From Gammaproteobacteria bacterium (lineage in GTDB: Bacteria > Pseudomonadota > Gammaproteobacteria > Eutrophobiales > Eutrophobiaceae): a stretch of 64,000 bases of DNA. Location of the stretch: NCBI GenBank assembly GCA_965220815.1, contig OZ244846.1:1987620-2051619 (forward strand), written 5' to 3'. Shown here one piece after another: positions 38,781 through 64,000 of the stretch (position 1 is the stretch's first letter; every line of letters starts with the position of its first letter). The position numbers and the translations under genes were made by a program. The notes under the pieces are model-generated. The model searched no databases, was not told the origin of the DNA, and was given only the letters and a program-made list of their open reading frames with translations.

Positions 38781-38857
38781 TTTCTTGTGCTGTACTTCAG
38801 GAACGATGAACCTTGCATCGATCTCGCAATACAAACACACAAAAAAGTGACAAATTT

Positions 38858-45100: not shown

Positions 45101-48100
45101 CACCAGCCGACTACGCGGCGGTGTCCAATTTTAACATTGTCATCCCCGCGGGCGCGGCCAGCCACACCAACACGTTTACCCTCACGCCCGTGAACGACAA
45201 CCTGGACGAGGAGAATGAAACGATAGACGTGACAGGCACGGTTCCCGGTTCCATCACTGTTACGCCTGCCACGGTAAGCCTCACCGACAATGACGACCCG
45301 CCCATTTTTTCCATTGCCGGTGACGCCGCGTCCGAGGGCGATGCGATTGACTTTGTTGTGACCCGCGGCGGGGCCACGGCGAACGTGGCGACGGTCAAGA
45401 TTGCCACCGCCGCCCATTCAGGTGACGATGTGAATCCTGCCGGCGCCGACGATTACACCGCGATTACAACAGCACAGACACTCAGTTTCGCCAGTGGGGA
45501 TACCAGCCAGACCGTCTCGGTACAGACGACCGAGGACGATTTATATGAGGAAGACGAGACCTTCCTGGCAGTACTGAGCGAGCCGGCGCTGGCGGAGGGA
45601 GACCCGGGCACGGGGGTGAGCATTGCGCCCAACGCCGGCAGCGCCACGGGCACGATACGGAACGATGATACCGAGCCGTCGTTTTCCATTACCGATGCCA
45701 GCGCCTCGGAAGGCGATGCCATCACCTTCACGGTGACCCGTTCCGGGGCCATGGACAATGCCGTGTCGGTATCCTGGAACACCAAGCCGGCGACCGGCGC
45801 CAATGCGGCTGCGACCTCAGATTACACGCCGGTAACAACGCCGACTCAACTGGACTTTGGCGCCGGTGTGGGCAGGGTGACGTTCACGGTCAGCACCACG
45901 GAGGACGTACTGGACGAGGGCAATGAGACCTTCCTGGTGGAGTTGACGAGTCCGGTAGGCGGCGCCATCACCACCGACGAGGCGACCGGTACTATCAACG
46001 ATGATGACGATGCACCGACTGGCATAACCTTGACAGTGGACGAGAACTCGTTCGCGGAGAATGCGGACACCGCAACGGTGACCGTCACTGCCACGGTCAC
46101 GGGCGGCACCACCTTTGCCGATACGAAGACAGTGGTGGTGAGCGTGGACGATGGCACGGCGATTTCTGGCACCGACTATGCAGCGGTGCCCGGCTTCAAC
46201 ATCGCCCTCGCTGTCGGCGCCGAGAGTGCCACCGGAACATTCAGCTTCAAACCGACGGACGACGAACTGGACGAGCCGAATGAGACACTGGACGTGACTG
46301 GGACCCTGACGGATGTGACGATCACGAAGGCCACGATCACGATCAACGACAATGATACGACGCCGAGTTTCAAGGTAGGGGATGCAAGTGCCGCGGAAGG
46401 GGAGGCATTGAGTTTCGTGGTGACGCGGGACGGTGCGACGGCAAACGTGGTGACGGTGGATTGGGCGACGGCGTTGGTGGACGGCGAGGCGTCAGCGATG
46501 GACTTCACAGCGGTGCCGGCAACGACGTTGACCTTTGCGGCGGGGGACACGACGAAGATGGTGACGGTGATGTCGACGGAGGACGTGCTGGACGAGGAGG
46601 ACGAGACGTTCGAGGTCAAGCTGACCAACCCGGCCAAGGGTGCGAGTGACCCGGGCAGCGTCCCGACGATCAGCGATGACACGGGTGAGGGGACCATCAC
46701 CGACGATGACGCGGCGCCGATGACGATGACCCTGACGGTGGATGCGGACACGGCCACGAACAACGTGCAGGGCAGCCTGGCCGAGGACGGCGGGGCGAAG
46801 ACGGTGCGGGTCACGGCCGCGATTACCGGCGCCACCCGCTTTGCCGCCGCGCAGACGGTGAGCGTGGCGGTGGGCAAGGCGATGGACAGCGCCCGGGAGG
46901 GGACGGACTACGCCACGGTGGCCGACCAGACCATCACGATTGCGGCGGGGGCGGCCAGCGGGCAGGTGGACTTCACGCTGACGCCCACGGACGATGACAT
47001 CGACGAGCCGAACGAGACGATAAGCATCGCGGGCACGCTGGCCGGTGTGACGTTCACCGACACCGTCATCACCATTACGGACGATGAGGCCCTGCCGACG
47101 CTGAGCCTGGCGCTCGGCGCAGCGTCGATTAACGAGAGCGGCAACGGCAACAGCACCGCGGTGACGGCGCGCTTGTCGGGCAAGTCCAGCGTGGACGTGA
47201 CGGTGGCGGTGGGCACGGCGCCGGGGGCGGACACGACCACCGGCGATTACACGGTGAGCGCCAACACGACGCTGACGATTGCCGCGGGGTCGACGGCGAG
47301 CACGGGGGAGGTGACCATCACCGCAGTCGATAACAAGGTGGACGCCCCGAACAAGAGCGTGACGGTCTCGGGCACGGCCAGTGGCGGCGGGGTGGCGAAC
47401 CCGGGCAACCAGACGTTGACCATCACGGACGATGACACCCGCGGCATCACCGTGACGCCGCTCACGCGCACCCTGGACGAGGTCGATGACGCGGACACCG
47501 ACGACGCTACGGAAAACCGGGCCACCTACACGGTGGTGCTCGACAGCGAGCCCACCGGCACCGTGACCGTCAACCTGGCCAGCAAGGACGGGACGGTGGC
47601 CACGGTCGGCACGGCCAGCCTGGTCTTCACCACCGCCGACTGGAACACGGTGCGCACGGTGACCGTCACCGCGGTGCCGGACATCATCGACAACACCGGC
47701 AATGCGCGCACGGTGGACATCGAGCACACGGTGGTGGCGGCGGGCACGGACTACGAGGACGAGAGTGCGGCCAGCGTGACCGTCACGGTCACCGACGATG
47801 ACGCGGCGCCGATGACGATGACCCTGACGGTGGATGCGGACACGGCCACGAACAACGTGCAGGGCAGCCTGGCCGAGGACGGCGGGGCGAAGACGGTGCG
47901 GGTCACGGCCGCGATTACCGGCGCCACCCGCTTTGCCGCCGCGCAGACGGTGAGCGTGGCGGTGGGCAAGGCGATGGACAGCGCCCGGGAGGGGACGGAC
48001 TACGCCACGGTGGCCGACCAGACCATCACGATTGCGGCGGGGGCGGCCAGCGGGCAGGTGGACTTCACGCTGACGCCCACGGACGATGACATCGACGAGC

Positions 48101-51100: not shown

Positions 51101-54100
51101 TGACGGTGGATGCGGACACGGCCACGAACAACGTGCAGGGCAGCCTGGCCGAGGACGGCGGGGCGAAGACGGTGCGGGTCACGGCCGCGATTACCGGCGC
51201 CACCCGCTTTGCCGCCGCGCAGACGGTGAGCGTGGCGGTGGGCAAGGCGATGGACAGCGCCCGGGAGGGGACGGACTACGCCACGGTGGCCGACCAGACC
51301 ATCACGATTGCGGCGGGGGCGGCCAGCGGGCAGGTGGACTTCACGCTGACGCCCACGGACGATGACATCGACGAGCCGAACGAGACGATAAGCATCGCGG
51401 GCACGCTGGCCGGTGTGACGTTCACCGACACCGTCATCACCATTACGGACGATGAGGCCCTGCCGACGCTGAGCCTGGCGCTCGGCGCAGCGTCGATTAA
51501 CGAGAGCGGCAACGGCAACAGCACCGCGGTGACGGCGCGCTTGTCGGGCAAGTCCAGCGTGGACGTGACGGTGGCGGTGGGCACGGCGCCGGGGGCGGAC
51601 ACGACCACCGGCGATTACACGGTGAGCGCCAACACGACGCTGACGATTGCCGCGGGGTCGACGGCGAGCACGGGGGAGGTGACCATCACCGCAGTCGATA
51701 ACAAGGTGGACGCCCCGAACAAGAGCGTGACGGTCTCGGGCACGGCCAGTGGCGGCGGGGTGGCGAACCCGGGCAACCAGACGTTGACCATCACGGACGA
51801 TGACACCCGCGGCATCACCGTGACGCCGCTCACGCGCACCCTGGACGAGGTCGATGACGCGGACACCGACGACGCTACGGAAAACCGGGCCACCTACACG
51901 GTGGTGCTCGACAGCGAGCCCACCGGCACCGTGACCGTCAACCTGGCCAGCAAGGACGGGACGGTGGCCACGGTCGGCACGGCCAGCCTGGTCTTCACCA
52001 CCGCCGACTGGAACACGGTGCGCACGGTGACCGTCACCGCGGTGCCGGACATCATCGACAACACCGGCAATGCGCGCACGGTGGACATCGAGCACACGGT
52101 GGTGGCGGCGGGCACGGACTACGAGGACGAGAGTGCGGCCAGCGTGACCGTCACGGTCACCGACGATGACGCGGCGCCGATGACGATGACCCTGACGGTG
52201 GATGCGGACACGGCCACGAACAACGTGCAGGGCAGCCTGGCCGAGGACGGCGGGGCGAAGACGGTGCGGGTCACGGCCGCGATTACCGGCGCCACCCGCT
52301 TTGCCGCCGCGCAGACGGTGAGCGTGGCGGTGGGCAAGGCGATGGACAGCGCCCGGGAGGGGACGGACTACGCCACGGTGGCCGACCAGACCATCACGAT
52401 TGCGGCGGGGGCGGCCAGCGGGCAGGTGGACTTCACGCTGACGCCCACGGACGATGACATCGACGAGCCGAACGAGACGATAAGCATCGCGGGCACGCTG
52501 GCCGGTGTGACGTTCACCGACACCGTCATCACCATTACGGACGATGAGGCCCTGCCGACGCTGAGCCTGGCGCTCGGCGCAGCGTCGATTAACGAGAGCG
52601 GCAACGGCAACAGCACCGCGGTGACGGCGCGCTTGTCGGGCAAGTCCAGCGTGGACGTGACGGTGGCGGTGGGCACGGCGCCGGGGGCGGACACGACCAC
52701 CGGCGATTACACGGTGAGCGCCAACACGACGCTGACGATTGCCGCGGGGTCGACGGCGAGCACGGGGGAGGTGACCATCACCGCAGTCGATAACAAGGTG
52801 GACGCCCCGAACAAGAGCGTGACGGTCTCGGGCACGGCCAGTGGCGGCGGGGTGGCGAACCCGGGCAACCAGACGTTGACCATCACGGACGATGACACCC
52901 GCGGCATCACCGTGACGCCGCTCACGCGCACCCTGGACGAGGTCGATGACGCGGACACCGACGACGCTACGGAAAACCGGGCCACCTACACGGTGGTGCT
53001 CGACAGCGAGCCCACCGGCACCGTGACCGTCAACCTGGCCAGCAAGGACGGGACGGTGGCCACGGTCGGCACGGCCAGCCTGGTCTTCACCACCGCCGAC
53101 TGGAACACGGTGCGCACGGTGACCGTCACCGCGGTGCCGGACATCATCGACAACACCGGCAATGCGCGCACGGTGGACATCGAGCACACGGTGGTGGCGG
53201 CGGGCACGGACTACGAGGACGAGAGTGCGGCCAGCGTGACCGTCACGGTCACCGACGATGACGCCGCGCCGGGCGGGATTGCGCTCTCGGTCTCCCCGGC
53301 CTCGGTGGGCGAGGGGGCCGGGGAGACGGAGGTGACGGTGACGGCCACGGTGGGCGGGGCCTCCCGTTACGAGGCGGCGCAGACGGTGGCGGTGAGCGTG
53401 GGCGGGGGTACGGCCACCGCCCCGGCGGACTATGCGGCGGTGGCGGGGTTTAACATTGTCATTGCCGCGGGGGCGGTGAGCGCGACCGGCACGTTCGACC
53501 TGACGCCGGTGGACGATGCGCTGGCGGAGGGCAACGAGACCATCGACGTGACGGGCGTCGCCGGCGCGCTGGACGTGACCGACACGGAGATTACCCTTAA
53601 CGACGATGACACCGCGCCCACGGCGCTGACCCTGACGGTGGATGCGGACACGGCCACGAACAACGTGCAGGGCAGCCTGGCCGAGAACGGCGGGGCGAAG
53701 ACGGTGCGGGTGACGGCGACCCTGGACGGGGCCGGGCGCTTTACCGAGGCCAAGACCGTGACGGTGGCGGTGGGCAAGAACACGGACGGCGCCCGGGAGG
53801 GGACGGACTACGCCGTTGTCGCCGACCTGAGCATCGTGATTGCGGCGGGGGAAGGCAGCGCGCACGCGGACTTCACGCTGACGCCGACCGATGACGCCCT
53901 GGCGGAGGGCAGCGAGACGATAAGCATCGCGGGCACGGTGGCCGGGCTGAGTGTCACCGACACTGAAATTACCCTTAACGACGATGACGTGGCGCCCACG
54001 GGCATCACGGTCACGGTGGACGTGGACCCGGACACGGTCGGCGACCAGACCAGTCTGGCCGAGGACGCCGGGGCGCGCACGGTGACGGTGACCGCCGCGG

Positions 54101-57100
54101 TGAACGGGGCGACCCGTTACGTGGCGGCGACGACGGTGGCGGTGGCGGTGGGCAAGGCGGATGACGGGGCCACGGAGGGCACGGACTACGCCAACGTGGC
54201 CGACCTCAGCCTGACGATTGCGGCCGGTGAGCAGAGCGCCAGCGCCACGTTCACGCTGACGGTGACGGACGATGCCTTTAACGAGGGCAACGAGACCATC
54301 AGCGTGGACGGCACGGCGGGCACGCTGAGCGTGACCGATGCGGAAATCACCATTAACGACGATGACGCCGCGCCGGGCGGGATTGCGCTCTCGGTCTCCC
54401 CGGCCTCGGTGGGCGAGGGGGCCGGGGAGACGGAGGTGACGGTGACGGCCACGGTGGGCGGGGCCTCCCGTTACGAGGCGGCGCAGACGGTGGCGGTGAG
54501 CGTGGGCGGGGGTACGGCCACCGCCCCGGCGGACTATGCGGCGGTGGCGGGGTTTAACATTGTCATTGCCGCGGGGGCGGTGAGCGCGACCGGCACGTTC
54601 GACCTGACGCCGGTGGACGATGCGCTGGCGGAGGGCAACGAGACCATCGACGTGACGGGCGTCGCCGGCGCGCTGGACGTGACCGACACGGAGATTACCC
54701 TTAACGACGATGACACCGCGCCCACGGCGCTGACCCTGACGGTGGATGCGGACACGGCCACGAACAACGTGCAGGGCAGCCTGGCCGAGAACGGCGGGGC
54801 GAAGACGGTGCGGGTGACGGCGACCCTGGACGGGGCCGGGCGCTTTACCGAGGCCAAGACCGTGACGGTGGCGGTGGGCAAGAACACGGACGGCGCCCGG
54901 GAGGGGACGGACTACGCCGTTGTCGCCGACCTGAGCATCGTGATTGCGGCGGGGGAAGGCAGCGCGCACGCGGACTTCACGCTGACGCCGACCGATGACG
55001 CCCTGGCGGAGGGCAGCGAGACGATAAGCATCGCGGGCACGGTGGCCGGGCTGAGTGTCACCGACACTGAAATTACCCTTAACGACGATGACGTGGCGCC
55101 CACGGGCATCACGGTCACGGTGGACGTGGACCCGGACACGGTCGGCGACCAGACCAGTCTGGCCGAGGACGCCGGGGCGCGCACGGTGACGGTGACCGCC
55201 GCGGTGAACGGGGCGACCCGTTACGTGGCGGCGACGACGGTGGCGGTGGCGGTGGGCAAGGCGGATGACGGGGCCACGGAGGGCACGGACTACGCCAACG
55301 TGGCCGACCTCAGCCTGACGATTGCGGCCGGTGAGCAGAGCGCCAGCGCCACGTTCACGCTGACGGTGACGGACGATGCCTTTAACGAGGGCAACGAGAC
55401 CATCAGCGTGGACGGCACGGCGGGCACGCTGAGCGTGACCGATGCGGAAATCACCATTAACGACGATGACGCCGCGCCGGGCGGGATTGCGCTCTCGGTC
55501 TCCCCGGCCTCGGTGGGCGAGGGGGCCGGGGAGACGGAGGTGACGGTGACGGCCACGGTGGGCGGGGCCTCCCGTTACGAGGCGGCGCAGACGGTGGCGG
55601 TGAGCGTGGGCGGGGGTACGGCCACCGCCCCGGCGGACTATGCGGCGGTGGCGGGGTTTAACATTGTCATTGCCGCGGGGGCGGTGAGCGCGACCGGCAC
55701 GTTCGACCTGACGCCGGTGGACGATGCGCTGGCGGAGGGCAACGAGACCATCGACGTGACGGGCGTCGCCGGCGCGCTGGACGTGACCGACACGGAGATT
55801 ACCCTTAACGACGATGACACCGCGCCCACGGCGCTGACCCTGACGGTGGATGCGGACACGGCCACGAACAACGTGCAGGGCAGCCTGGCCGAGAACGGCG
55901 GGGCGAAGACGGTGCGGGTGACGGCGACCCTGGACGGGGCCGGGCGCTTTACCGAGGCCAAGACCGTGACGGTGGCGGTGGGCAAGAACACGGACGGCGC
56001 CCGGGAGGGGACGGACTACGCCGTTGTCGCCGACCTGAGCATCGTGATTGCGGCGGGGGAAGGCAGCGCGCACGCGGACTTCACGCTGACGCCGACCGAT
56101 GACGCCCTGGCGGAGGGCAGCGAGACGATAAGCATCGCGGGCACGGTGGCCGGGCTGAGTGTCACCGACACTGAAATTACCCTTAACGACGATGACGTGG
56201 CGCCCACGGGCATCACGGTCACGGTGGACGTGGACCCGGACACGGTCGGCGACCAGACCAGTCTGGCCGAGGACGCCGGGGCGCGCACGGTGACGGTGAC
56301 CGCCGCGGTGAACGGGGCGACCCGTTACGTGGCGGCGACGACGGTGGCGGTGGCGGTGGGCAAGGCGGATGACGGGGCCACGGAGGGCACGGACTACGCC
56401 AACGTGGCCGACCTCAGCCTGACGATTGCGGCCGGTGAGCAGAGCGCCAGCGCCACGTTCACGCTGACGGTGACGGACGATGCCTTTAACGAGGGCAACG
56501 AGACCATCAGCGTGGACGGCACGGCGGGCACGCTGAGCGTGACCGATGCGGAAATCACCATTAACGACGATGACGCCGCGCCGGGCGGGATTGCGCTCTC
56601 GGTCTCCCCGGCCTCGGTGGGCGAGGGGGCCGGGGAGACGGAGGTGACGGTGACGGCCACGGTGGGCGGGGCCTCCCGTTACGAGGCGGCGCAGACGGTG
56701 GCGGTGAGCGTGGGCGGGGGTACGGCCACCGCCCCGGCGGACTATGCGGCGGTGGCGGGGTTTAACATTGTCATTGCCGCGGGGGCGGTGAGCGCGACCG
56801 GCACGTTCGACCTGACGCCGGTGGACGATGCGCTGGCGGAGGGCAACGAGACCATCGACGTGACGGGCGTCGCCGGCGCGCTGGACGTGACCGACACGGA
56901 GATTACCCTTAACGACGATGACACCGCGCCCACGGCGCTGACCCTGACGGTGGATGCGGACACGGCCACGAACAACGTGCAGGGCAGCCTGGCCGAGAAC
57001 GGCGGGGCGAAGACGGTGCGGGTGACGGCGACCCTGGACGGGGCCGGGCGCTTTACCGAGGCCAAGACCGTGACGGTGGCGGTGGGCAAGAACACGGACG

Positions 57101-60100
57101 GCGCCCGGGAGGGGACGGACTACGCCGTTGTCGCCGACCTGAGCATCGTGATTGCGGCGGGGGAAGGCAGCGCGCACGCGGACTTCACGCTGACGCCGAC
57201 CGATGACGCCCTGGCGGAGGGCAGCGAGACGATAAGCATCGCGGGCACGGTGGCCGGGCTGAGTGTCACCGACACTGAAATTACCCTTAACGACGATGAC
57301 GTGGCGCCCACGGGCATCACGGTCACGGTGGACGTGGACCCGGACACGGTCGGCGACCAGACCAGTCTGGCCGAGGACGCCGGGGCGCGCACGGTGACGG
57401 TGACCGCCGCGGTGAACGGGGCGACCCGTTACGTGGCGGCGACGACGGTGGCGGTGGCGGTGGGCAAGGCGGATGACGGGGCCACGGAGGGCACGGACTA
57501 CGCCAACGTGGCCGACCTCAGCCTGACGATTGCGGCCGGTGAGCAGAGCGCCAGCGCCACGTTCACGCTGACGGTGACGGACGATGCCTTTAACGAGGGC
57601 AACGAGACCATCAGCGTGGACGGCACGGCGGGCACGCTGAGCGTGACCGATGCGGAAATCACCATTAACGACGATGACGCCGCGCCGGGCGGGATTGCGC
57701 TCTCGGTCTCCCCGGCCTCGGTGGGCGAGGGGGCCGGGGAGACGGAGGTGACGGTGACGGCCACGGTGGGCGGGGCCTCCCGTTACGAGGCGGCGCAGAC
57801 GGTGGCGGTGAGCGTGGGCGGGGGTACGGCCACCGCCCCGGCGGACTATGCGGCGGTGGCGGGGTTTAACATTGTCATTGCCGCGGGGGCGGTGAGCGCG
57901 ACCGGCACGTTCGACCTGACGCCGGTGGACGATGCGCTGGCGGAGGGCAACGAGACCATCGACGTGACGGGCGTCGCCGGCGCGCTGGACGTGACCGACA
58001 CGGAGATTACCCTTAACGACGATGACACCGCGCCCACGGCGCTGACCCTGACGGTGGATGCGGACACGGCCACGAACAACGTGCAGGGCAGCCTGGCCGA
58101 GAACGGCGGGGCGAAGACGGTGCGGGTGACGGCGACCCTGGACGGGGCCGGGCGCTTTACCGAGGCCAAGACCGTGACGGTGGCGGTGGGCAAGAACACG
58201 GACGGCGCCCGGGAGGGGACGGACTACGCCGTTGTCGCCGACCTGAGCATCGTGATTGCGGCGGGGGAAGGCAGCGCGCACGCGGACTTCACGCTGACGC
58301 CGACCGATGACGCCCTGGCGGAGGGCAGCGAGACGATAAGCATCGCGGGCACGGTGGCCGGGCTGAGTGTCACCGACACTGAAATTACCCTTAACGACGA
58401 TGACGTGGCGCCCACGGGCATCACGGTCACGGTGGACGTGGACCCGGACACGGTCGGCGACCAGACCAGTCTGGCCGAGGACGCCGGGGCGCGCACGGTG
58501 ACGGTGACCGCCGCGGTGAACGGGGCGACCCGTTACGTGGCGGCGACGACGGTGGCGGTGGCGGTGGGCAAGGCGGATGACGGGGCCACGGAGGGCACGG
58601 ACTACGCCAACGTGGCCGACCTCAGCCTGACGATTGCGGCCGGTGAGCAGAGCGCCAGCGCCACGTTCACGCTGACGGTGACGGACGATGCCTTTAACGA
58701 GGGCAACGAGACCATCAGCGTGGACGGCACGGCGGGCACGCTGAGCGTGACCGATGCGGAAATCACCATTAACGACGATGACGCCGCGCCGGGCGGGATT
58801 GCGCTCTCGGTCTCCCCGGCCTCGGTGGGCGAGGGGGCCGGGGAGACGGAGGTGACGGTGACGGCCACGGTGGGCGGGGCCTCCCGTTACGAGGCGGCGC
58901 AGACGGTGGCGGTGAGCGTGGGCGGGGGTACGGCCACCGCCCCGGCGGACTATGCGGCGGTGGCGGGGTTTAACATTGTCATTGCCGCGGGGGCGGTGAG
59001 CGCGACCGGCACGTTCGACCTGACGCCGGTGGACGATGCGCTGGCGGAGGGCAACGAGACCATCGACGTGACGGGCGTCGCCGGCGCGCTGGACGTGACC
59101 GACACGGAGATTACCCTTAACGACGATGACACCGCGCCCACGGCGCTGACCCTGACGGTGGATGCGGACACGGCCACGAACAACGTGCAGGGCAGCCTGG
59201 CCGAGAACGGCGGGGCGAAGACGGTGCGGGTGACGGCGACCCTGGACGGGGCCGGGCGCTTTACCGAGGCCAAGACCGTGACGGTGGCGGTGGGCAAGAA
59301 CACGGACGGCGCCCGGGAGGGGACGGACTACGCCGTTGTCGCCGACCTGAGCATCGTGATTGCGGCGGGGGAAGGCAGCGCGCACGCGGACTTCACGCTG
59401 ACGCCGACCGATGACGCCCTGGCGGAGGGCAGCGAGACGATAAGCATCGCGGGCACGGTGGCCGGGCTGAGTGTCACCGACACTGAAATTACCCTTAACG
59501 ACGATGACGTGGCGCCCACGGGCATCACGGTCACGGTGGACGTGGACCCGGACACGGTCGGCGACCAGACCAGTCTGGCCGAGGACGCCGGGGCGCGCAC
59601 GGTGACGGTGACCGCCGCGGTGAACGGGGCGACCCGTTACGTGGCGGCGACGACGGTGGCGGTGGCGGTGGGCAAGGCGGATGACGGGGCCACGGAGGGC
59701 ACGGACTACGCCAACGTGGCCGACCTCAGCCTGACGATTGCGGCCGGTGAGCAGAGCGCCAGCGCCACGTTCACGCTGACGGTGACGGACGATGCCTTTA
59801 ACGAGGGCAACGAGACCATCAGCGTGGACGGCACGGCGGGCACGCTGAGCGTGACCGATGCGGAAATCACCATTAACGACGATGACGCCGCGCCGGGCGG
59901 GATTGCGCTCTCGGTCTCCCCGGCCTCGGTGGGCGAGGGGGCCGGGGAGACGGAGGTGACGGTGACGGCCACGGTGGGCGGGGCCTCCCGTTACGAGGCG
60001 GCGCAGACGGTGGCGGTGAGCGTGGGCGGGGGTACGGCCACCGCCCCGGCGGACTATGCGGCGGTGGCGGGGTTTAACATTGTCATTGCCGCGGGGGCGG

Positions 60101-63100
60101 TGAGCGCGACCGGCACGTTCGACCTGACGCCGGTGGACGATGCGCTGGCGGAGGGCAACGAGACCATCGACGTGACGGGCGTCGCCGGCGCGCTGGACGT
60201 GACCGACACGGAGATTACCCTTAACGACGATGACACCGCGCCCACGGCGCTGACCCTGACGGTGGATGCGGACACGGCCACGAACAACGTGCAGGGCAGC
60301 CTGGCCGAGAACGGCGGGGCGAAGACGGTGCGGGTGACGGCGACCCTGGACGGGGCCGGGCGCTTTACCGAGGCCAAGACCGTGACGGTGGCGGTGGGCA
60401 AGAACACGGACGGCGCCCGGGAGGGGACGGACTACGCCGTTGTCGCCGACCTGAGCATCGTGATTGCGGCGGGGGAAGGCAGCGCGCACGCGGACTTCAC
60501 GCTGACGCCGACCGATGACGCCCTGGCGGAGGGCAGCGAGACGATAAGCATCGCGGGCACGGTGGCCGGGCTGAGTGTCACCGACACTGAAATTACCCTT
60601 AACGACGATGACGTGGCGCCCACGGGCATCACGGTCACGGTGGACGTGGACCCGGACACGGTCGGCGACCAGACCAGTCTGGCCGAGGACGCCGGGGCGC
60701 GCACGGTGACGGTGACCGCCGCGGTGAACGGGGCGACCCGTTACGTGGCGGCGACGACGGTGGCGGTGGCGGTGGGCAAGGCGGATGACGGGGCCACGGA
60801 GGGCACGGACTACGCCAACGTGGCCGACCTCAGCCTGACGATTGCGGCCGGTGAGCAGAGCGCCAGCGCCACGTTCACGCTGACGGTGACGGACGATGCC
60901 TTTAACGAGGGCAACGAGACCATCAGCGTGGACGGCACGGCGGGCACGCTGAGCGTGACCGATGCGGAAATCACCATTAACGACGATGACGCCGCGCCGG
61001 GCGGGATTGCGCTCTCGGTCTCCCCGGCCTCGGTGGGCGAGGGGGCCGGGGAGACGGAGGTGACGGTGACGGCCACGGTGGGCGGGGCCTCCCGTTACGA
61101 GGCGGCGCAGACGGTGGCGGTGAGCGTGGGCGGGGGTACGGCCACCGCCCCGGCGGACTATGCGGCGGTGGCGGGGTTTAACATTGTCATTGCCGCGGGG
61201 GCGGTGAGCGCGACCGGCACGTTCGACCTGACGCCGGTGGACGATGCGCTGGCGGAGGGCAACGAGACCATCGACGTGACGGGCGTCGCCGGCGCGCTGG
61301 ACGTGACCGACACGGAGATTACCCTTAACGACGATGACACCGCGCCCACGGCGCTGACCCTGACGGTGGATGCGGACACGGCCACGAACAACGTGCAGGG
61401 CAGCCTGGCCGAGAACGGCGGGGCGAAGACGGTGCGGGTGACGGCGACCCTGGACGGGGCCGGGCGCTTTACCGAGGCCAAGACCGTGACGGTGGCGGTG
61501 GGCAAGAACACGGACGGCGCCCGGGAGGGGACGGACTACGCCGTTGTCGCCGACCTGAGCATCGTGATTGCGGCGGGGGAAGGCAGCGCGCACGCGGACT
61601 TCACGCTGACGCCGACCGATGACGCCCTGGCGGAGGGCAGCGAGACGATAAGCATCGCGGGCACGGTGGCCGGGCTGAGTGTCACCGACACTGAAATTAC
61701 CCTTAACGACGATGACGTGGCGCCCACGGGCATCACGGTCACGGTGGACGTGGACCCGGACACGGTCGGCGACCAGACCAGTCTGGCCGAGGACGCCGGG
61801 GCGCGCACGGTGACGGTGACCGCCGCGGTGAACGGGGCGACCCGTTACGTGGCGGCGACGACGGTGGCGGTGGCGGTGGGCAAGGCGGATGACGGGGCCA
61901 CGGAGGGCACGGACTACGCCAACGTGGCCGACCTCAGCCTGACGATTGCGGCCGGTGAGCAGAGCGCCAGCGCCACGTTCACGCTGACGGTGACGGACGA
62001 TGCCTTTAACGAGGGCAACGAGACCATCAGCGTGGACGGCACGGCGGGCACGCTGAGCGTGACCGATGCGGAAATCACCATTAACGACGATGACGCCGCG
62101 CCGGGCGGGATTGCGCTCTCGGTCTCCCCGGCCTCGGTGGGCGAGGGGGCCGGGGAGACGGAGGTGACGGTGACGGCCACGGTGGGCGGGGCCTCCCGTT
62201 ACGAGGCGGCGCAGACGGTGGCGGTGAGCGTGGGCGGGGGTACGGCCACCGCCCCGGCGGACTATGCGGCGGTGGCGGGGTTTAACATTGTCATTGCCGC
62301 GGGGGCGGTGAGCGCGACCGGCACGTTCGACCTGACGCCGGTGGACGATGCGCTGGCGGAGGGCAACGAGACCATCGACGTGACGGGCGTCGCCGGCGCG
62401 CTGGACGTGACCGACACGGAGATTACCCTTAACGACGATGACACCGCGCCCACGGCGCTGACCCTGACGGTGGATGCGGACACGGCCACGAACAACGTGC
62501 AGGGCAGCCTGGCCGAGAACGGCGGGGCGAAGACGGTGCGGGTGACGGCGACCCTGGACGGGGCCGGGCGCTTTACCGAGGCCAAGACCGTGACGGTGGC
62601 GGTGGGCAAGAACACGGACGGCGCCCGGGAGGGGACGGACTACGCCGTTGTCGCCGACCTGAGCATCGTGATTGCGGCGGGGGAAGGCAGCGCGCACGCG
62701 GACTTCACGCTGACGCCGACCGATGACGCCCTGGCGGAGGGCAGCGAGACGATAAGCATCGCGGGCACGGTGGCCGGGCTGAGTGTCACCGACACTGAAA
62801 TTACCCTTAACGACGATGACGTGGCGCCCACGGGCATCACGGTCACGGTGGACGTGGACCCGGACACGGTCGGCGACCAGACCAGTCTGGCCGAGGACGC
62901 CGGGGCGCGCACGGTGACGGTGACCGCCGCGGTGAACGGGGCGACCCGTTACGTGGCGGCGACGACGGTGGCGGTGGCGGTGGGCAAGGCGGATGACGGG
63001 GCCACGGAGGGCACGGACTACGCCAACGTGGCCGACCTCAGCCTGACGATTGCGGCCGGTGAGCAGAGCGCCAGCGCCACGTTCACGCTGACGGTGACGG

Positions 63101-64000
63101 ACGATGCCTTTAACGAGGGCAACGAGACCATCAGCGTGGACGGCACGGCGGGCACGCTGAGCGTGACCGATGCGGAAATCACCATTAACGACGATGACGC
63201 CGCGCCGGGCGGGATTGCGCTCTCGGTCTCCCCGGCCTCGGTGGGCGAGGGGGCCGGGGAGACGGAGGTGACGGTGACGGCCACGGTGGGCGGGGCCTCC
63301 CGTTACGAGGCGGCGCAGACGGTGGCGGTGAGCGTGGGCGGGGGTACGGCCACCGCCCCGGCGGACTATGCGGCGGTGGCGGGGTTTAACATTGTCATTG
63401 CCGCGGGGGCGGTGAGCGCGACCGGCACGTTCGACCTGACGCCGGTGGACGATGCGCTGGCGGAGGGCAACGAGACCATCGACGTGACGGGCGTCGCCGG
63501 CGCGCTGGACGTGACCGACACGGAGATTACCCTTAACGACGATGACACCGCGCCCACGGCGCTGACCCTGACGGTGGATGCGGACACGGCCACGAACAAC
63601 GTGCAGGGCAGCCTGGCCGAGAACGGCGGGGCGAAGACGGTGCGGGTGACGGCGACCCTGGACGGGGCCGGGCGCTTTACCGAGGCCAAGACCGTGACGG
63701 TGGCGGTGGGCAAGAACACGGACGGCGCCCGGGAGGGGACGGACTACGCCGTTGTCGCCGACCAGCGTATCACGATTGCGGCGGGGGCGGGCAGCGCGCA
63801 CGTGGACTTCACGCTGACCCCCACGAACGATGCTATAGACGAACCAGACGAGATGATCAGCATTGAGGGTTCGCTTGCCGGTGTCACTTTCACCCAGGCA
63901 ACCATCACCATCACGGACGATGACGACGCGCCGACGACACTGACCCTGTCGGTGGATGCGGACACGGGCACGAACGGTACGCAAAACAGTATCGCGGAGG
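39154..64000 (+). CDS. giant Calx-beta-repeat extracellular/adhesin-like protein, 3' end beyond the window (>8,282 codons in window)
   Basis: Hand translation from the ATG at 39154 (in-frame stop TAG at 39103-39105 upstream) is open through nt 64000. The product is built from ~120-aa units ending in DEPNET..GT..GVT.TD..ITI.DDD (Calx-beta-like), Thr/Val/Asp/Ala-rich and highly acidic. The N-terminus is a signal-like hydrophobic segment (LLACAGGIGCLLLAGFLAALPGGVVAQQ). Absent from the ORF track because it has no in-window stop. Confidence 0.85.
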   Translation, partial: MRVDTLIAPETLLRALLACAGGIGCLLLAGFLAALPGGVVAQQAPSVSITKPAGSVTEGETVTFTVSRIGDSSQELRVNFETQDGDTGGNAFFTDAVAGSDYTRVSRTLTFPAGNSQSQTISVQTLSDDVYEPLEYFHIRAVVTYNDGEKDITRTVLSRDQRIREAQQRYLTLKPVSSSSYSIPEFRAKEGEENKLTIELNEPLPYDLSITYTVGNTLHTTAEKGKDYTMETGTKTISSGQKSTTLMLDIKDDDEVEPDEYFTILFTEIGKANPLTVQETYNEVSFQEGSNLSVLIEDNDSGEGAVYLRGQARSGQLSGYPVTRNTLTEGQSTTIYAEIAGGAPSTSINIPLEVTGYPSGEVTSGDYSIPPSIQIAAGDKTGSVTLSITDDAVDERFRELLVVKIDNAVTSTGYSKGDRSEFHVVMEDNDKTVVVLKNEDREVALSENSGKRKTTFDIVLARIPKPTASGPPGFDVDINESDPKFTLTYKGEATHGSDYRATTSVPGSDTRCGNTGNDPKNSNHICTVTLTVLDDNLYEGGAKTTEKISISLAGGMFNDGLDPATSTPIKLTIEDNDTQPTFSIEDVSVTEDDPAKFTISRSGAKENRISVRAKTAMGGSNPAQSADYAARTHTVTLGSGVMSNTFQVAITDDIIHEPGPPETFLVKLDQPKDIGGLPPPAIEDDEATGTINDNDEKPSALEITVDTNTATNADDTNIAEAAGETDVKVTATITSGTRFATAQTVAVTVGNSDNDNEAVEGTDYGNVAGFDITIPAGQASGTHTFKLTPTDDDIDDDNEKISVEGALDDLTVTHAAITIVDDDTRGITVAPASLTLDEKDDSNTATSQENQGTYDVVLTSEPTGGEVTVNVASGDGTVATVDKASLTFDATNWKTAQTVTVTAQDDPIDNTGDKRETTIIHTVSAADTDYEGEKAESVDVTVTDDDAAPMALTLKVDTDATTIGDQTNINEGTGSPTVSHTVTVTATLDGDTRFATEQTINVTVGAASDSATEGSGGDYDTVADFEITLDASEGSASKTFIFTPDPDSVDEPDETISVNGVLSGVTVAGTTITLEDDDDTPTVTLALAPASINESGATNASTVTATLNGTSSEAVTLTVSATPVSPAVASDITLSNNKTLTIPALSTDSTGVVTITAVDNHVDADNKTVTVSATASGGNGLAAPDDVTLTITDDDERGINVSKTTLTLDEADDTDTMDADEHEDTYNVVLESEPTGGTVTINVASGDTDIAIVAPASLTFNSSNWKTPQPVTVTAVPNTADDPMNRRLVTITHTVSAEGTDYESETASNVEVTVNDDDGAPSMSINRPSVTEGDSATATLTFTVRLTPASGNQVTVAYADAGSGTATSATDYAALTAGTLTFAPGDTSKPVAVTVNGDVLDEPDETVVLRLSSLVNAVFTGVAGTTLDGTGTITDNDPTPTVSVSDATAVNEGNVMSPDPPNNMTFTVQLSAVSGQTVTVPYTLGGTATAGEDYIEPNPRSVTIAAGSPSATITIPVKGDEVDEDNETVIVTLGTPTNATVSTAEGAATATGTITDDDTRGITVMPLTRTLDEVDNTATDAITENQATYTVVLDSQPTGTVTVNLASKDGTVATVGTARLEFTTGNWNTVRTVTITAVPDIIDNTGNRRTVDIEHTVSAAGTDYSGERAASVAVTVTDDDAAPSGITLTASPDSVAEEGGAETITVTAAVNGITRYAEAKTVTVSVGGGSAISGADYMTVSNFNITIPAGAASEAETFTLTPASDVLHEGNETLNVMGTLTGITITPDEITITDNDAAPTALTLTVDADTGTDNVQSSIAEDSGAKTVRVTATLDGSSQFTTDKTVSVEVGKSGDSAGEGSDYATVGALTITIKAGTSSAHVDFTLTPTNDVLDEENEIISLDGTATGLMVADAEITLTDDDATPTGITLTVDTNGATAGTPDTVGEGAGATTVTVIAAVNGTTRYVDAKTVAVSVSDDEATSPADYAAVSNFNIVIPAGAASHTNTFTLTPVNDNLDEENETIDVTGTVPGSITVTPATVSLTDNDDPPIFSIAGDAASEGDAIDFVVTRGGATANVATVKIATAAHSGDDVNPAGADDYTAITTAQTLSFASGDTSQTVSVQTTEDDLYEEDETFLAVLSEPALAEGDPGTGVSIAPNAGSATGTIRNDDTEPSFSITDASASEGDAITFTVTRSGAMDNAVSVSWNTKPATGANAAATSDYTPVTTPTQLDFGAGVGRVTFTVSTTEDVLDEGNETFLVELTSPVGGAITTDEATGTINDDDDAPTGITLTVDENSFAENADTATVTVTATVTGGTTFADTKTVVVSVDDGTAISGTDYAAVPGFNIALAVGAESATGTFSFKPTDDELDEPNETLDVTGTLTDVTITKATITINDNDTTPSFKVGDASAAEGEALSFVVTRDGATANVVTVDWATALVDGEASAMDFTAVPATTLTFAAGDTTKMVTVMSTEDVLDEEDETFEVKLTNPAKGASDPGSVPTISDDTGEGTITDDDAAPMTMTLTVDADTATNNVQGSLAEDGGAKTVRVTAAITGATRFAAAQTVSVAVGKAMDSAREGTDYATVADQTITIAAGAASGQVDFTLTPTDDDIDEPNETISIAGTLAGVTFTDTVITITDDEALPTLSLALGAASINESGNGNSTAVTARLSGKSSVDVTVAVGTAPGADTTTGDYTVSANTTLTIAAGSTASTGEVTITAVDNKVDAPNKSVTVSGTASGGGVANPGNQTLTITDDDTRGITVTPLTRTLDEVDDADTDDATENRATYTVVLDSEPTGTVTVNLASKDGTVATVGTASLVFTTADWNTVRTVTVTAVPDIIDNTGNARTVDIEHTVVAAGTDYEDESAASVTVTVTDDDAAPMTMTLTVDADTATNNVQGSLAEDGGAKTVRVTAAITGATRFAAAQTVSVAVGKAMDSAREGTDYATVADQTITIAAGAASGQVDFTLTPTDDDIDEPNETISIAGTLAGVTFTDTVITITDDEALPTLSLALGAASINESGNGNSTAVTARLSGKSSVDVTVAVGTAPGADTTTGDYTVSANTTLTIAAGSTASTGEVTITAVDNKVDAPNKSVTVSGTASGGGVANPGNQTLTITDDDTRGITVTPLTRTLDEVDDADTDDATENRATYTVVLDSEPTGTVTVNLASKDGTVATVGTASLVFTTADWNTVRTVTVTAVPDIIDNTGNARTVDIEHTVVAAGTDYEDESAASVTVTVTDDDAAPMTMTLTVDADTATNNVQGSLAEDGGAKTVRVTAAITGATRFAAAQTVSVAVGKAMDSAREGTDYATVADQTITIAAGAASGQVDFTLTPTDDDIDEPNETISIAGTLAGVTFTDTVITITDDEALPTLSLALGAASINESGNGNSTAVTARLSGKSSVDVTVAVGTAPGADTTTGDYTVSANTTLTIAAGSTASTGEVTITAVDNKVDAPNKSVTVSGTASGGGVANPGNQTLTITDDDTRGITVTPLTRTLDEVDDADTDDATENRATYTVVLDSEPTGTVTVNLASKDGTVATVGTASLVFTTADWNTVRTVTVTAVPDIIDNTGNARTVDIEHTVVAAGTDYEDESAASVTVTVTDDDAAPMTMTLTVDADTATNNVQGSLAEDGGAKTVRVTAAITGATRFAAAQTVSVAVGKAMDSAREGTDYATVADQTITIAAGAASGQVDFTLTPTDDDIDEPNETISIAGTLAGVTFTDTVITITDDEALPTLSLALGAASINESGNGNSTAVTARLSGKSSVDVTVAVGTAPGADTTTGDYTVSANTTLTIAAGSTASTGEVTITAVDNKVDAPNKSVTVSGTASGGGVANPGNQTLTITDDDTRGITVTPLTRTLDEVDDADTDDATENRATYTVVLDSEPTGTVTVNLASKDGTVATVGTASLVFTTADWNTVRTVTVTAVPDIIDNTGNARTVDIEHTVVAAGTDYEDESAASVTVTVTDDDAAPMTMTLTVDADTATNNVQGSLAEDGGAKTVRVTAAITGATRFAAAQTVSVAVGKAMDSAREGTDYATVADQTITIAAGAASGQVDFTLTPTDDDIDEPNETISIAGTLAGVTFTDTVITITDDEALPTLSLALGAASINESGNGNSTAVTARLSGKSSVDVTVAVGTAPGADTTTGDYTVSANTTLTIAAGSTASTGEVTITAVDNKVDAPNKSVTVSGTASGGGVANPGNQTLTITDDDTRGITVTPLTRTLDEVDDADTDDATENRATYTVVLDSEPTGTVTVNLASKDGTVATVGTASLVFTTADWNTVRTVTVTAVPDIIDNTGNARTVDIEHTVVAAGTDYEDESAASVTVTVTDDDAAPMTMTLTVDADTATNNVQGSLAEDGGAKTVRVTAAITGATRFAAAQTVSVAVGKAMDSAREGTDYATVADQTITIAAGAASGQVDFTLTPTDDDIDEPNETISIAGTLAGVTFTDTVITITDDEALPTLSLALGAASINESGNGNSTAVTARLSGKSSVDVTVAVGTAPGADTTTGDYTVSANTTLTIAAGSTASTGEVTITAVDNKVDAPNKSVTVSGTASGGGVANPGNQTLTITDDDTRGITVTPLTRTLDEVDDADTDDATENRATYTVVLDSEPTGTVTVNLASKDGTVATVGTASLVFTTADWNTVRTVTVTAVPDIIDNTGNARTVDIEHTVVAAGTDYEDESAASVTVTVTDDDAAPGGIALSVSPASVGEGAGETEVTVTATVGGASRYEAAQTVAVSVGGGTATAPADYAAVAGFNIVIAAGAVSATGTFDLTPVDDALAEGNETIDVTGVAGALDVTDTEITLNDDDTAPTALTLTVDADTATNNVQGSLAENGGAKTVRVTATLDGAGRFTEAKTVTVAVGKNTDGAREGTDYAVVADLSIVIAAGEGSAHADFTLTPTDDALAEGSETISIAGTVAGLSVTDTEITLNDDDVAPTGITVTVDVDPDTVGDQTSLAEDAGARTVTVTAAVNGATRYVAATTVAVAVGKADDGATEGTDYANVADLSLTIAAGEQSASATFTLTVTDDAFNEGNETISVDGTAGTLSVTDAEITINDDDAAPGGIALSVSPASVGEGAGETEVTVTATVGGASRYEAAQTVAVSVGGGTATAPADYAAVAGFNIVIAAGAVSATGTFDLTPVDDALAEGNETIDVTGVAGALDVTDTEITLNDDDTAPTALTLTVDADTATNNVQGSLAENGGAKTVRVTATLDGAGRFTEAKTVTVAVGKNTDGAREGTDYAVVADLSIVIAAGEGSAHADFTLTPTDDALAEGSETISIAGTVAGLSVTDTEITLNDDDVAPTGITVTVDVDPDTVGDQTSLAEDAGARTVTVTAAVNGATRYVAATTVAVAVGKADDGATEGTDYANVADLSLTIAAGEQSASATFTLTVTDDAFNEGNETISVDGTAGTLSVTDAEITINDDDAAPGGIALSVSPASVGEGAGETEVTVTATVGGASRYEAAQTVAVSVGGGTATAPADYAAVAGFNIVIAAGAVSATGTFDLTPVDDALAEGNETIDVTGVAGALDVTDTEITLNDDDTAPTALTLTVDADTATNNVQGSLAENGGAKTVRVTATLDGAGRFTEAKTVTVAVGKNTDGAREGTDYAVVADLSIVIAAGEGSAHADFTLTPTDDALAEGSETISIAGTVAGLSVTDTEITLNDDDVAPTGITVTVDVDPDTVGDQTSLAEDAGARTVTVTAAVNGATRYVAATTVAVAVGKADDGATEGTDYANVADLSLTIAAGEQSASATFTLTVTDDAFNEGNETISVDGTAGTLSVTDAEITINDDDAAPGGIALSVSPASVGEGAGETEVTVTATVGGASRYEAAQTVAVSVGGGTATAPADYAAVAGFNIVIAAGAVSATGTFDLTPVDDALAEGNETIDVTGVAGALDVTDTEITLNDDDTAPTALTLTVDADTATNNVQGSLAENGGAKTVRVTATLDGAGRFTEAKTVTVAVGKNTDGAREGTDYAVVADLSIVIAAGEGSAHADFTLTPTDDALAEGSETISIAGTVAGLSVTDTEITLNDDDVAPTGITVTVDVDPDTVGDQTSLAEDAGARTVTVTAAVNGATRYVAATTVAVAVGKADDGATEGTDYANVADLSLTIAAGEQSASATFTLTVTDDAFNEGNETISVDGTAGTLSVTDAEITINDDDAAPGGIALSVSPASVGEGAGETEVTVTATVGGASRYEAAQTVAVSVGGGTATAPADYAAVAGFNIVIAAGAVSATGTFDLTPVDDALAEGNETIDVTGVAGALDVTDTEITLNDDDTAPTALTLTVDADTATNNVQGSLAENGGAKTVRVTATLDGAGRFTEAKTVTVAVGKNTDGAREGTDYAVVADLSIVIAAGEGSAHADFTLTPTDDALAEGSETISIAGTVAGLSVTDTEITLNDDDVAPTGITVTVDVDPDTVGDQTSLAEDAGARTVTVTAAVNGATRYVAATTVAVAVGKADDGATEGTDYANVADLSLTIAAGEQSASATFTLTVTDDAFNEGNETISVDGTAGTLSVTDAEITINDDDAAPGGIALSVSPASVGEGAGETEVTVTATVGGASRYEAAQTVAVSVGGGTATAPADYAAVAGFNIVIAAGAVSATGTFDLTPVDDALAEGNETIDVTGVAGALDVTDTEITLNDDDTAPTALTLTVDADTATNNVQGSLAENGGAKTVRVTATLDGAGRFTEAKTVTVAVGKNTDGAREGTDYAVVADLSIVIAAGEGSAHADFTLTPTDDALAEGSETISIAGTVAGLSVTDTEITLNDDDVAPTGITVTVDVDPDTVGDQTSLAEDAGARTVTVTAAVNGATRYVAATTVAVAVGKADDGATEGTDYANVADLSLTIAAGEQSASATFTLTVTDDAFNEGNETISVDGTAGTLSVTDAEITINDDDAAPGGIALSVSPASVGEGAGETEVTVTATVGGASRYEAAQTVAVSVGGGTATAPADYAAVAGFNIVIAAGAVSATGTFDLTPVDDALAEGNETIDVTGVAGALDVTDTEITLNDDDTAPTALTLTVDADTATNNVQGSLAENGGAKTVRVTATLDGAGRFTEAKTVTVAVGKNTDGAREGTDYAVVADLSIVIAAGEGSAHADFTLTPTDDALAEGSETISIAGTVAGLSVTDTEITLNDDDVAPTGITVTVDVDPDTVGDQTSLAEDAGARTVTVTAAVNGATRYVAATTVAVAVGKADDGATEGTDYANVADLSLTIAAGEQSASATFTLTVTDDAFNEGNETISVDGTAGTLSVTDAEITINDDDAAPGGIALSVSPASVGEGAGETEVTVTATVGGASRYEAAQTVAVSVGGGTATAPADYAAVAGFNIVIAAGAVSATGTFDLTPVDDALAEGNETIDVTGVAGALDVTDTEITLNDDDTAPTALTLTVDADTATNNVQGSLAENGGAKTVRVTATLDGAGRFTEAKTVTVAVGKNTDGAREGTDYAVVADLSIVIAAGEGSAHADFTLTPTDDALAEGSETISIAGTVAGLSVTDTEITLNDDDVAPTGITVTVDVDPDTVGDQTSLAEDAGARTVTVTAAVNGATRYVAATTVAVAVGKADDGATEGTDYANVADLSLTIAAGEQSASATFTLTVTDDAFNEGNETISVDGTAGTLSVTDAEITINDDDAAPGGIALSVSPASVGEGAGETEVTVTATVGGASRYEAAQTVAVSVGGGTATAPADYAAVAGFNIVIAAGAVSATGTFDLTPVDDALAEGNETIDVTGVAGALDVTDTEITLNDDDTAPTALTLTVDADTATNNVQGSLAENGGAKTVRVTATLDGAGRFTEAKTVTVAVGKNTDGAREGTDYAVVADLSIVIAAGEGSAHADFTLTPTDDALAEGSETISIAGTVAGLSVTDTEITLNDDDVAPTGITVTVDVDPDTVGDQTSLAEDAGARTVTVTAAVNGATRYVAATTVAVAVGKADDGATEGTDYANVADLSLTIAAGEQSASATFTLTVTDDAFNEGNETISVDGTAGTLSVTDAEITINDDDAAPGGIALSVSPASVGEGAGETEVTVTATVGGASRYEAAQTVAVSVGGGTATAPADYAAVAGFNIVIAAGAVSATGTFDLTPVDDALAEGNETIDVTGVAGALDVTDTEITLNDDDTAPTALTLTVDADTATNNVQGSLAENGGAKTVRVTATLDGAGRFTEAKTVTVAVGKNTDGAREGTDYAVVADQRITIAAGAGSAHVDFTLTPTNDAIDEPDEMISIEGSLAGVTFTQATITITDDDDAPTTLTLSVDADTGTNGTQNSIAE
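46701..53252 (+). repeat. tandem array A inside the giant gene: 6 apparently identical copies of a 1092-bp (364-aa) unit
   Basis: Unit starts at 46701, 47793, 48885, 49977, 51069 and 52161. Sequence lines are identical copy to copy. Identical antisense track ORFs are spaced exactly 1092 nt apart (46908, 48000 ... 52368). Confidence 0.9.
53254..63753 (+). repeat. tandem array B inside the giant gene: about 9.5 apparently identical copies of a 1104-bp (368-aa, three-subdomain) unit
   Basis: Unit starts at 53254 + n x 1104 (n = 0..9). Identical antisense track ORFs at 53430, 54534 ... 63366. The 10th copy diverges at ~63754. Confidence 0.9.

Follow-up and report, generated by a model that had tools for sequence, protein, structure and literature searches.

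Base-perfect arrays of in-frame, three-domain repeats in a gene predicted to encode a giant Calx-beta-like surface protein

The stretch of DNA analysed here (the window; 64,000 nucleotides (nt) of contig OZ244846.1, positions 1,987,620 to 2,051,619 of the forward strand) ends inside a giant gene for a predicted surface protein, and this gene contains two back-to-back tandem arrays whose copies do not differ at a single base. The arrays were detected by comparing the window with itself at lags of 1092 and 1104 bp, and the match runs without a break from 46697 to 52172 at lag 1092 and from 53253 to 62659 at lag 1104. Together, array A and array B cover 46697-63763 (17,067 bp), and the base-perfect, three-domain higher-order repeats total 5,693 codons. 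We read the arrays, with a probability of about 0.75, as the stalk (extender) of a giant Sec-exported beta-sandwich adhesin, whose units would have been amplified recently and in frame by unequal recombination or slippage. The feature is an extreme case of the familiar, recombination-prone, in-frame tandem domain repeats of giant adhesin genes.

Geometry of the arrays and the gene that carries them

Four module types were used to describe the protein.

C: canonical Calx-beta module
T1: Calx-beta-like module of about 124 amino acids (aa)
T2: 112-aa module with a weak match to the LapA domain PF20579 (25.9 bits, cut-off 27)
T3: 124-aa 'DDDTRGITV...NW.T.QTVTVTA' module, matching no Pfam family (array example, 47419-47790)

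In these terms, the arrays and their edges are as follows.

46697-53264, + strand: array A, 6,568 bp, 6.01 copies of a 1092-bp unit (364 aa) built as T1-T2-T3, 0 mismatches
53253-53264, + strand: A/B junction, 12 bp common to both arrays (CGACGATGACGC), within the linker-coding TCACCGACGATGACGC encoding TDDDA
53253-63763, + strand: array B, 10,511 bp, 9.52 copies of a 1104-bp unit (368 aa) built as T1-T1-T1, 0 mismatches
63764-64000, + strand: diverged, B2-like edge module and the start of the next module, the gene running on past the window end

Both unit lengths are multiples of 3 (364 and 368 codons). Beyond the limits of the arrays, identity at lags 1092 and 1104 falls immediately to about 30-35%, and the boundaries sit in the conserved linker-coding TCACCGACGATGACGC(G/C)GCGCC, which encodes T-D-D-D-A-A-P. 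The left edge of array A and the A/B junction are sharp, with terminal copies as perfect as the internal ones, and the right end of array B enters a B2-like module (63547-63918) that is 88% identical to B2 at the nt level. The modules inside a higher-order unit are only 66-81% identical in nt to one another. The maximum period of the tandem repeats finder (TRF) is 500, so its output gives only a 378-bp sub-period at 66% identity. An earlier sequence-only reading had proposed two back-to-back perfect arrays of 6 x 1092 and about 9.5 x 1104 bp at 46701-63753, within one gene. The lag comparison bears this out, with limits that differ by 4-10 bp from those first given and with both arrays in a single + strand open reading frame (ORF). 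The further proposal that copy number scales the length of the protein also stands, because each unit adds 364 or 368 aa in frame, that is, three beta-sandwich modules.

The window holds the 5′ part of the gene.

39154-64000, + strand: 5′ part of the giant surface-protein gene, at least 8,282 codons with no stop before the window end
39154-39282, + strand: long Sec-type signal peptide of about 43 aa (MRVDTLIAPETLLRALLACAGGIGCLLLAGFLAALPGGVVA/QQ), read from the sequence by inspection
39283-41241, + strand: non-repeated N-terminal region containing canonical Calx-beta modules, with a G+C content at third codon positions (GC3) of 0.52

The + frame of 39154 is open from 39106 through the window end, and 24.8 kb of the ORF lies in the window. 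The start is best placed at ATG 39154 and not at GTG 39337, which a public assembly's gene caller chose, because the alignment with homologues begins at M1 and takes in the predicted signal peptide. By inspection, the signal peptide combines basic residues with a hydrophobic core (about 21 aa) and a VVA/QQ site, which are conserved in the homologues; their N-termini are equivalent and end in ...LAALPLQAVA/QTQ. The N-terminal region is conserved at about 55% aa identity with homologues. Against the Calx-beta family PF03160 (gathering score, 27 bits), the N-terminal 1,200 aa scored 84.6 bits, residues 1201-2515 scored 188.8 bits and unit B scored 46.9 bits, above the gathering score, while T1 of unit A alone reached only 14.8 bits and the whole of unit A gave no PF03160 match at E <= 0.01. 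Searching the protein with its own modules gave the map C2C13-123-CC3-111-CC1C-(123)x6-(111)x9.5..., and D-[DN]-[DE] motifs number 79 in the window protein, against about 66 modules.

Each unit had been described as three Calx-beta-like subdomains. By sequence this holds for T1; T2 instead resembles the LapA domain, and T3 would belong only by its predicted fold. The AlphaFold (AF2) model of T3, made from a 35-sequence alignment, had a predicted local distance difference test score (pLDDT) of 93.4 and is the sole usable model, unit A from a single sequence having reached a pLDDT of 41. In a Foldseek search, the T3 model matched the Ca2+-binding domains (CBD) CBD1 and CBD2 of NCX1, CBD1 of CALX and the Calx-beta domain of integrin beta4 (TM 0.57-0.65, E 3e-4 to 3e-3); it also matched other immunoglobulin (Ig)-like folds (PapD, MSP). 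The predicted model thus supports the beta-sandwich as the fold class of T3, with moderate specificity for Calx-beta. Against PDB sequences, the T3 profile found only a marginal match, the Ig-like group 1 domain 5ldy (E 0.06). The conserved positions of T3 are a D-D-D near the N-terminus, P45, F70, W75, D88 and Y112. The collected homologues contain 590 distinct T3 segments, in hundreds of copies, and T3 is a candidate new domain family.

Upstream of the arrays lie single, diverged relatives of their units.

41605-41979, + strand: oldest T3 copy, 69.6% nt identity to A3
41992-43095, + strand: old single unit A-type T1-T2-T3 block, 64.6%, 65.2% and 65.3% nt identity to A1, A2 and A3
43810-44181, + strand: T3′ module, 90.3% nt identity to T3 of array A, the apparent recombination partner in the sister strain described below
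44158-45288, + strand: old single unit B-type T1-T1-T1 block, 60-73% nt identity to the B modules

The older copies noticed at 41.6-42.0, 42.7-43.1 and 43.8-44.2 kb are indeed T3 modules (69.6%, 65.3% and 90.3% nt identity), of which the second, at 42721-43095, is the final module of the old unit A-type block. The smooth gradient from diverged 5′ copies to identical 3′ copies did not survive: old copies lie at 60-70%, one lies at 90%, and two perfect arrays follow.

The opposite strand of the arrays is open as well.

46492-63984, - strand: antisense open frame, continuous over 5,830 codons, its codons in register with those of the sense strand

What had been taken for identical antisense ORFs recurring at 1092/1104-nt spacing is this one frame, a by-product of a GC3 of about 0.92. 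The final sense TTA, CTA or TCA codon is at 46492; the antisense frame is open because these codons are absent from there on, and they are absent because GC3 is 0.91-0.94 in the arrays. A run of 5,830 codons without a stop might suggest that the antisense frame is the real gene or a second gene. However, its translation gave no Pfam match, Calx-beta included, it keeps register with the sense codons, the high GC3 explains its openness, and it is the sense strand that has the Calx-beta domains and thousands of homologues. The chance of an antisense gene is practically negligible, and we conclude that the frame is a compositional artefact.

GC3 climbs along the gene, starting at 0.52 (first 2 kb) and reaching 0.91-0.94 in the arrays, and the genes that flank it have a mean GC3 of 0.72 (range 0.62-0.83). 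A 5′-to-3′ rise to about 0.9 is present in every homologous locus (L002, L004-L016), irrespective of the flanking G+C content (0.50-0.71). This gradient could reflect GC-biased gene conversion in recombining repeats, or a shared foreign origin.

Recent expansion weighed against assembly error and concerted evolution

A second assembly, ERZ25072367, bears directly on how the arrays arose. Its contig_5 is 100% identical to window positions 28329-43863 (15.5 kb), and its contig_2 differs from the window by 9 single-nucleotide polymorphisms (SNPs) over 4.6 kb; on account of these SNPs, the assembly represents a distinct close strain or sample. From window position 43864 on, contig_5 follows T3 of array A and not T3′, and it then contains copies of unit A that are base-identical to those of the window. 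The joint was located by a three-way alignment.

43848-43863, + strand: crossover interval of the T3′/A3 joint in contig_5, 16 bp common to T3′ and A3

Relative to the window, the joint is an in-frame deletion of 3,609 + 1,092k bp, the copy numbers of the contig_5 arrays not being visible in the compared sequence. As assembled, it would match the expected outcome of one homologous crossover between T3′, the 90% copy, and a copy in the array, and it is a poor fit to long-read collapse. The gene product of ERZ25072367, counted from the GTG start, has 8,846 aa; were the rest of the gene the same, the window allele would be longer than about 10,000 aa.

The same comparison raises the question of whether the pattern was made by an assembler or polisher. 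The repeats themselves would then be real, and their copy number and/or absolute identity could have come from collapse or inflation of a near-identical array, or from a consensus step that erased differences at a few sites between copies. Nothing is harder for assemblers than perfect arrays such as these, of 6.6 and 10.5 kb. The sequence-only reading had urged caution about assemblies at perfect repeats, which was apt, given that two assemblies of nearly the same strain disagree structurally inside the gene. The second assembly is also fragmented nearby (the break between contig_2 and contig_5 falls within window 25-28 kb), and short-read scaffolds of relatives (L018, L019) stop where the repeats start. 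In contrast, the 24.8-kb ORF is intact with both units multiples of 3, unit A is base-identical in the independent contig_5, and the contig_5 joint lies in a 372-bp, 90% similar segment, whereas a typical long-read collapse would probably need a longer and less diverged one. In addition, chromosome-level relatives retain perfect and imperfect (82-99%) arrays side by side, which indicates that the copies were not blindly homogenised. We therefore regard an assembly product as unlikely. The L018 scaffold (flanks about 93% identical) has T3 directly before an A1-like module; we did not use it to read the ancestral arrangement, since de Bruijn assemblies can jump between such repeats.

Relatives of the gene were found in other genomes. 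The N-terminal 1,200 aa are 53-57% identical to proteins of chromosome-level metagenome-assembled genomes (MAGs) labelled Gammaproteobacteria (including Candidatus Poriferihabitaceae), Alphaproteobacteria, Rhodospirillales and Paracoccaceae, and a relative at 35% identity occurs in Nitrospira. An exhaustive HMMER search gave 3,316 cluster representatives at E <= 1e-30, many of them 4,000-7,900 aa long. One homologue search returned only proteins of up to about 2,100 aa, many cut by frameshifts or contig ends, and the 8,846-aa contig_5 product was not among them. At least two perfect tandem units at the aa level are present in 25 of the 149 representative homologues, reaching 23 x 117 aa, and several homologous loci have arrays of their own at the DNA level.

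L011: 6.3 copies of 1086 bp, one mismatch
L011: at least 5.6 copies of 345 bp, perfect
L013: 3.25 copies of 2889 bp, perfect
L002: 1092-bp units at 82-100% identity

These arrays also bear on whether the repeats are old and have been held identical by long-term concerted evolution, in which gene conversion never stops and identical modules are selected for, and do not stem from a recent burst of amplification. GC3 is 0.91-0.94 in the arrays against 0.72 in the flanking genes and 0.52 at the 5′ end, the same holds in all relatives, and such a pattern is compatible with long-standing GC-biased gene conversion; the 88% edge copy at the right end of array B is likewise what would be expected if edges escape homogenisation. 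However, array A begins abruptly and the A/B junction is equally sharp, with no decay in the terminal copies, and unit types and periods differ among close relatives (1086, 1092, 2889 and 345 bp), which points to recent, lineage-specific expansions. Long-term concerted evolution is possible, and we hold it to be somewhat unlikely. A recent lineage-specific expansion is favored because the ORF is intact with in-frame units, because of the contig_5 joint, because relatives have different arrays, and because perfect units recur at the aa level. Very recent amplification or homogenisation of units, as the sequence-only reading had suggested, is thus the best reading of the perfect arrays, the sister-strain joint and the perfect arrays of the relatives.

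In the expansion that we propose, T1-T2-T3 (364 aa) and T1-T1-T1 (368 aa) would each have been amplified in frame, and very recently, through unequal homologous recombination or slippage between homologies of linkers or units, possibly with ongoing conversion. The unit boundaries fall in the conserved linker-coding ...ACCGACGATGACGC... (T-D-D-D-A), and the copies would have been kept, or made, identical, giving 6 and 9.5 copies with 0 differences. Gain or loss of one unit would then change the stalk by three domains and preserve the frame. The C-terminus, beyond the window, would by homology be an autotransporter beta-barrel. If that barrel is present, the arrays would form the stalk close to the membrane, and the unique N-terminal stretch of about 700 aa, with its low GC3, would lie at the distal tip and probably bind a ligand. 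Ca2+ bound in the acidic D-D/N-D linkers would make the rod stiffer.

Anchor, secretion route and comparison with known adhesins

Two full-length homologues, P0064 (7,203 aa) and P0065 (7,300 aa), share the N-terminal region of the window protein, and their last 420 aa or so make up a domain whose final residue is aromatic (...ARW and ...FRW). Of the 211 collected proteins, 50 have this domain at their C-terminus. One of these, P0072, scored 41.1 bits on the Autotransporter family PF03797, P0024 and P0033 carry a precomputed PF03797 annotation, and the C-termini of P0064 and P0065 are homologous to those of P0072, P0024 and P0033 (E 4e-16 to 1e-145). The C-terminal domain of P0064 is borderline on TIGR01414 (15.3 bits, cut-off 16), and it had no match among PDB sequences. 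An exact 48-mer from the window tail had no match in GTDB representative genomes, and the tail protein found no confirmed relative among JGI metagenome contigs. The family is best described, from these homologies, as a predicted signal peptide followed by a beta-sandwich passenger and a type Va barrel, and the window protein is probably a type V giant adhesin and not one of the Lap/RTX type.

The Bap/Lap type had been named as the model for these repeats, and as a functional analogy for an extender region this stands, while membership in that group does not. A Lap/Bap-like repeats-in-toxin (RTX) adhesin exported by type I secretion would likewise be a giant chain of tandem beta-sandwiches joined by acidic linkers; T2 shows weak similarity to LapA domain PF20579, and the C-terminus and downstream genes lie outside the window. 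However, the N-terminus is a predicted Sec-type signal peptide and not a retention module as in Lap/RTX adhesins. RTX nonapeptides (GGxGxDxUx) number 0 in the 8,282 aa of the window, the C-terminus of the gene lying beyond, and 1 and 0 in full-length P0064 and P0065, which is the chance level. No type I secretion genes (ATP-binding cassette (ABC) transporter, membrane fusion protein (MFP), TolC or LapG/D) were found in the 39 kb upstream, and homologues with the same N-terminal region have an autotransporter-type barrel at their C-terminus, its last residue aromatic. Taken together, these results make a type I-secreted RTX adhesin very unlikely.

Extenders of tandem beta-sandwiches that Ca2+ makes stiff are an established feature of giant adhesins (PMC7493085), and the window protein resembles the extenders of the RTX adhesins (MpIBP of Marinomonas primoryensis, SiiE, LapA, MhLap and AhLap; PMC7493085) in its dozens of tandem 10-15 kDa beta-sandwiches with acidic, Ca2+-type linkers. 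In both cases the repeats make up most of a giant surface protein and set the length of a rod, and near-identical DNA repeats are typical. MpIBP has about 120 near-identical 104-aa repeats. The window protein differs from the RTX adhesins in its secretion signal and barrel-bearing homologues, as set out above; in its polarity, which would be reversed, with the N-terminus distal; and in its repeated unit, which is a three-domain higher-order unit and not a single domain.

With type Va autotransporters it shares the long N-terminal signal peptide and, in its homologues, a C-terminal barrel of about 400 aa with an aromatic end and PF03797 similarity, either direct or by transitive homology. Unlike them, its passenger consists of at least 66 Calx-beta/Ig-like sandwiches over more than 8,000 aa and not of a beta-helix, and a barrel has been seen in homologues only. 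The inverse autotransporters (intimin/invasin) have a similar Ig-like passenger but the opposite topology. The length-variable surface proteins alpha C/Rib, Esp and SasG/Aap of Gram-positive cocci are like the window gene in their identical in-frame DNA repeats that encode whole domains. In these proteins, copy number changes by recombination between isolates. They differ in cell envelope, LPXTG anchoring, domain families and much smaller arrays.

By architecture and habitat, the closest described protein is BapP of Pseudoalteromonas tunicata (PMC12153261), a Ca2+-dependent outer-membrane adhesin of a marine host-associated bacterium with a Sec/signal peptidase I (SPI) signal peptide and Calx-beta-type and BIg-type repeats (PMC12153261). 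BapP has 12 repeats and an N-terminal beta-propeller; the window protein is about five times larger or more, has no propeller and carries perfect higher-order arrays. Calx-beta (PF03160) is reportedly enriched across several bacterial phyla in sponges (PMC9531527, PMC11706023), and these 'eukaryote-like' proteins share habitat and domain with the present locus, whose close relatives occur in sponge metagenomes and symbiont MAGs. The two surveys count domains, and the giant autotransporter-like family with its higher-order arrays is not described there (PMC9531527, PMC11706023); we found no description of either in the literature searched.

Several points weigh against the reading of the arrays as the recently expanded stalk of an exported adhesin. 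The copy numbers of 6 and 9.5 and the absolute identity come from a single assembly, array B (10.5 kb) may approach the read length, and the structural difference between the window and contig_5 could be an error in either assembly. The C-termini of P0064 and P0065, searched alone against Pfam, gave no PF03797 match, and the autotransporter anchor of the window gene is predicted by homology, its 3′ end lying outside the window. Adhesion, Ca2+ binding and expression are predictions from the sequence, and some members of the family may be decaying, since several homologues are frameshifted. The sequences themselves show the arrays, their frame, the types of module, an N-terminus like a signal peptide, the recombinant variant of the sister strain, the perfect arrays of relatives and the barrel of homologues; from these we infer the recombination mechanism, the Ca2+-dependent rigidity, the barrel of the window protein, its adhesive function and the exact copy number.

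Genomic context, relatives and meaning

The 39 kb upstream of the gene contain two pyrroloquinoline quinone (PQQ) dehydrogenases, two fhcC-D-A clusters, mch, fae and other one-carbon (C1) genes linked to tetrahydromethanopterin (H4MPT), together with KdtA, a TonB-dependent receptor, and XerD-like and DsbC proteins. KdtA and the TonB-dependent receptor indicate that an outer membrane is present. An identical Fae protein is found in sponge metagenomes (GCA_001752985.1, LXNI01, from the data set of PMC5099237, and KELL22-1 METAG scaffolds). On the basis of the upstream C1 and outer-membrane genes, the Fae matches and the N-terminal relatives in MAGs, the predicted host is an uncultured Gram-negative, sponge-associated bacterium with methylotrophy genes. 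That xerD and dsbC are adjacent, together with how the related MAGs are labelled, points no further than to Proteobacteria.

The region has the look of a methylotrophy island, with these parts.

2107-3927, - strand
18196-20196, + strand
22629-26260, - strand
29347-32690, - strand

The two fhcC-D-A clusters are paralogous (GXGXG, FTR, Amidohydro_3), and the same region has a SoxY-SoxZ fusion ORF and an SBP_bac_3 protein. At 34680-34875, in a divergent intergenic region of the H4MPT cluster, a 20-bp unit (TTACAGGACACCCATGTAAA) occurs five times, three direct and then two inverted, beside a long inverted repeat, at about 34801-34875, with the potential to fold into a hairpin; the element may be regulatory or resemble repetitive extragenic palindromic (REP) sequences. 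The ORF at 3181-4845 (+) overlaps the PQQ dehydrogenase gene at 2107-3927 (-), and its SBF transporter domain covers only residues 284-460, which probably puts its true start near 4.0 kb. Scanning the window for Rfam families and tRNAs found nothing.

Similarity among the relatives was compared across loci L004-L016. The N-terminal 1,200 aa are 77% identical between a Gammaproteobacteria MAG and a Paracoccaceae MAG and 78% identical between an Alphaproteobacteria MAG and a Poriferihabitaceae (Gammaproteobacteria) MAG, and only 46% identical between two Poriferihabitaceae MAGs; the OY761822.1 genome carries two paralogues. That similarity does not track the MAG taxonomy labels suggests horizontal exchange or paralogy among sponge symbionts. 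Frameshifts interrupt several homologous giant genes (the C-terminal tails of P0001 and P0002; L002 at 15709-17259; L007 at about 20464), with out-of-frame tails after which the reading frame resumes in another frame, which means either that the genes are decaying or that the repeat-rich assemblies contain indel errors. In L017 (KELL22-1 scaffold_2716; flanks 82-97% identical), Fic and AAA-ATPase/DUF4143 genes (10757-14802) directly follow fae with no giant gene there, which indicates that the giant gene is variably present at this site.

A broader proposal, which we offer tentatively and consider improbable as a whole, is that the gene belongs to an undescribed large family of Sec-dependent, autotransporter-type Calx-beta-like adhesins that would be swapped horizontally across sponge-symbiont classes. 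Their stalk length would keep being retuned as multi-domain higher-order repeats expand in frame, a GC3 of about 0.9 in the repeat region, irrespective of the G+C content of the host genome, would record GC-biased gene conversion, and the rod would possibly engage or mimic the Calx-beta-rich matrix of the sponge aggregation factor.

The locus shows, in clean and extreme form, the way in which giant surface proteins of bacteria are built and resized, and a sister strain has a recombinant allele. Because metagenome assemblies break, frameshift or disagree in such genes, protein lengths in this family are unreliable without spanning reads. Less usual leads are the GC3 gradient in all relatives, a distribution that departs from MAG taxonomy, and T3, a module without a Pfam family. 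The locus also points to a large family of Calx-beta-like giant adhesins in sponge symbionts, and these adhesins are a concrete candidate, at the molecular level, for what lies behind the Calx-beta enrichment reported in sponge microbiomes.

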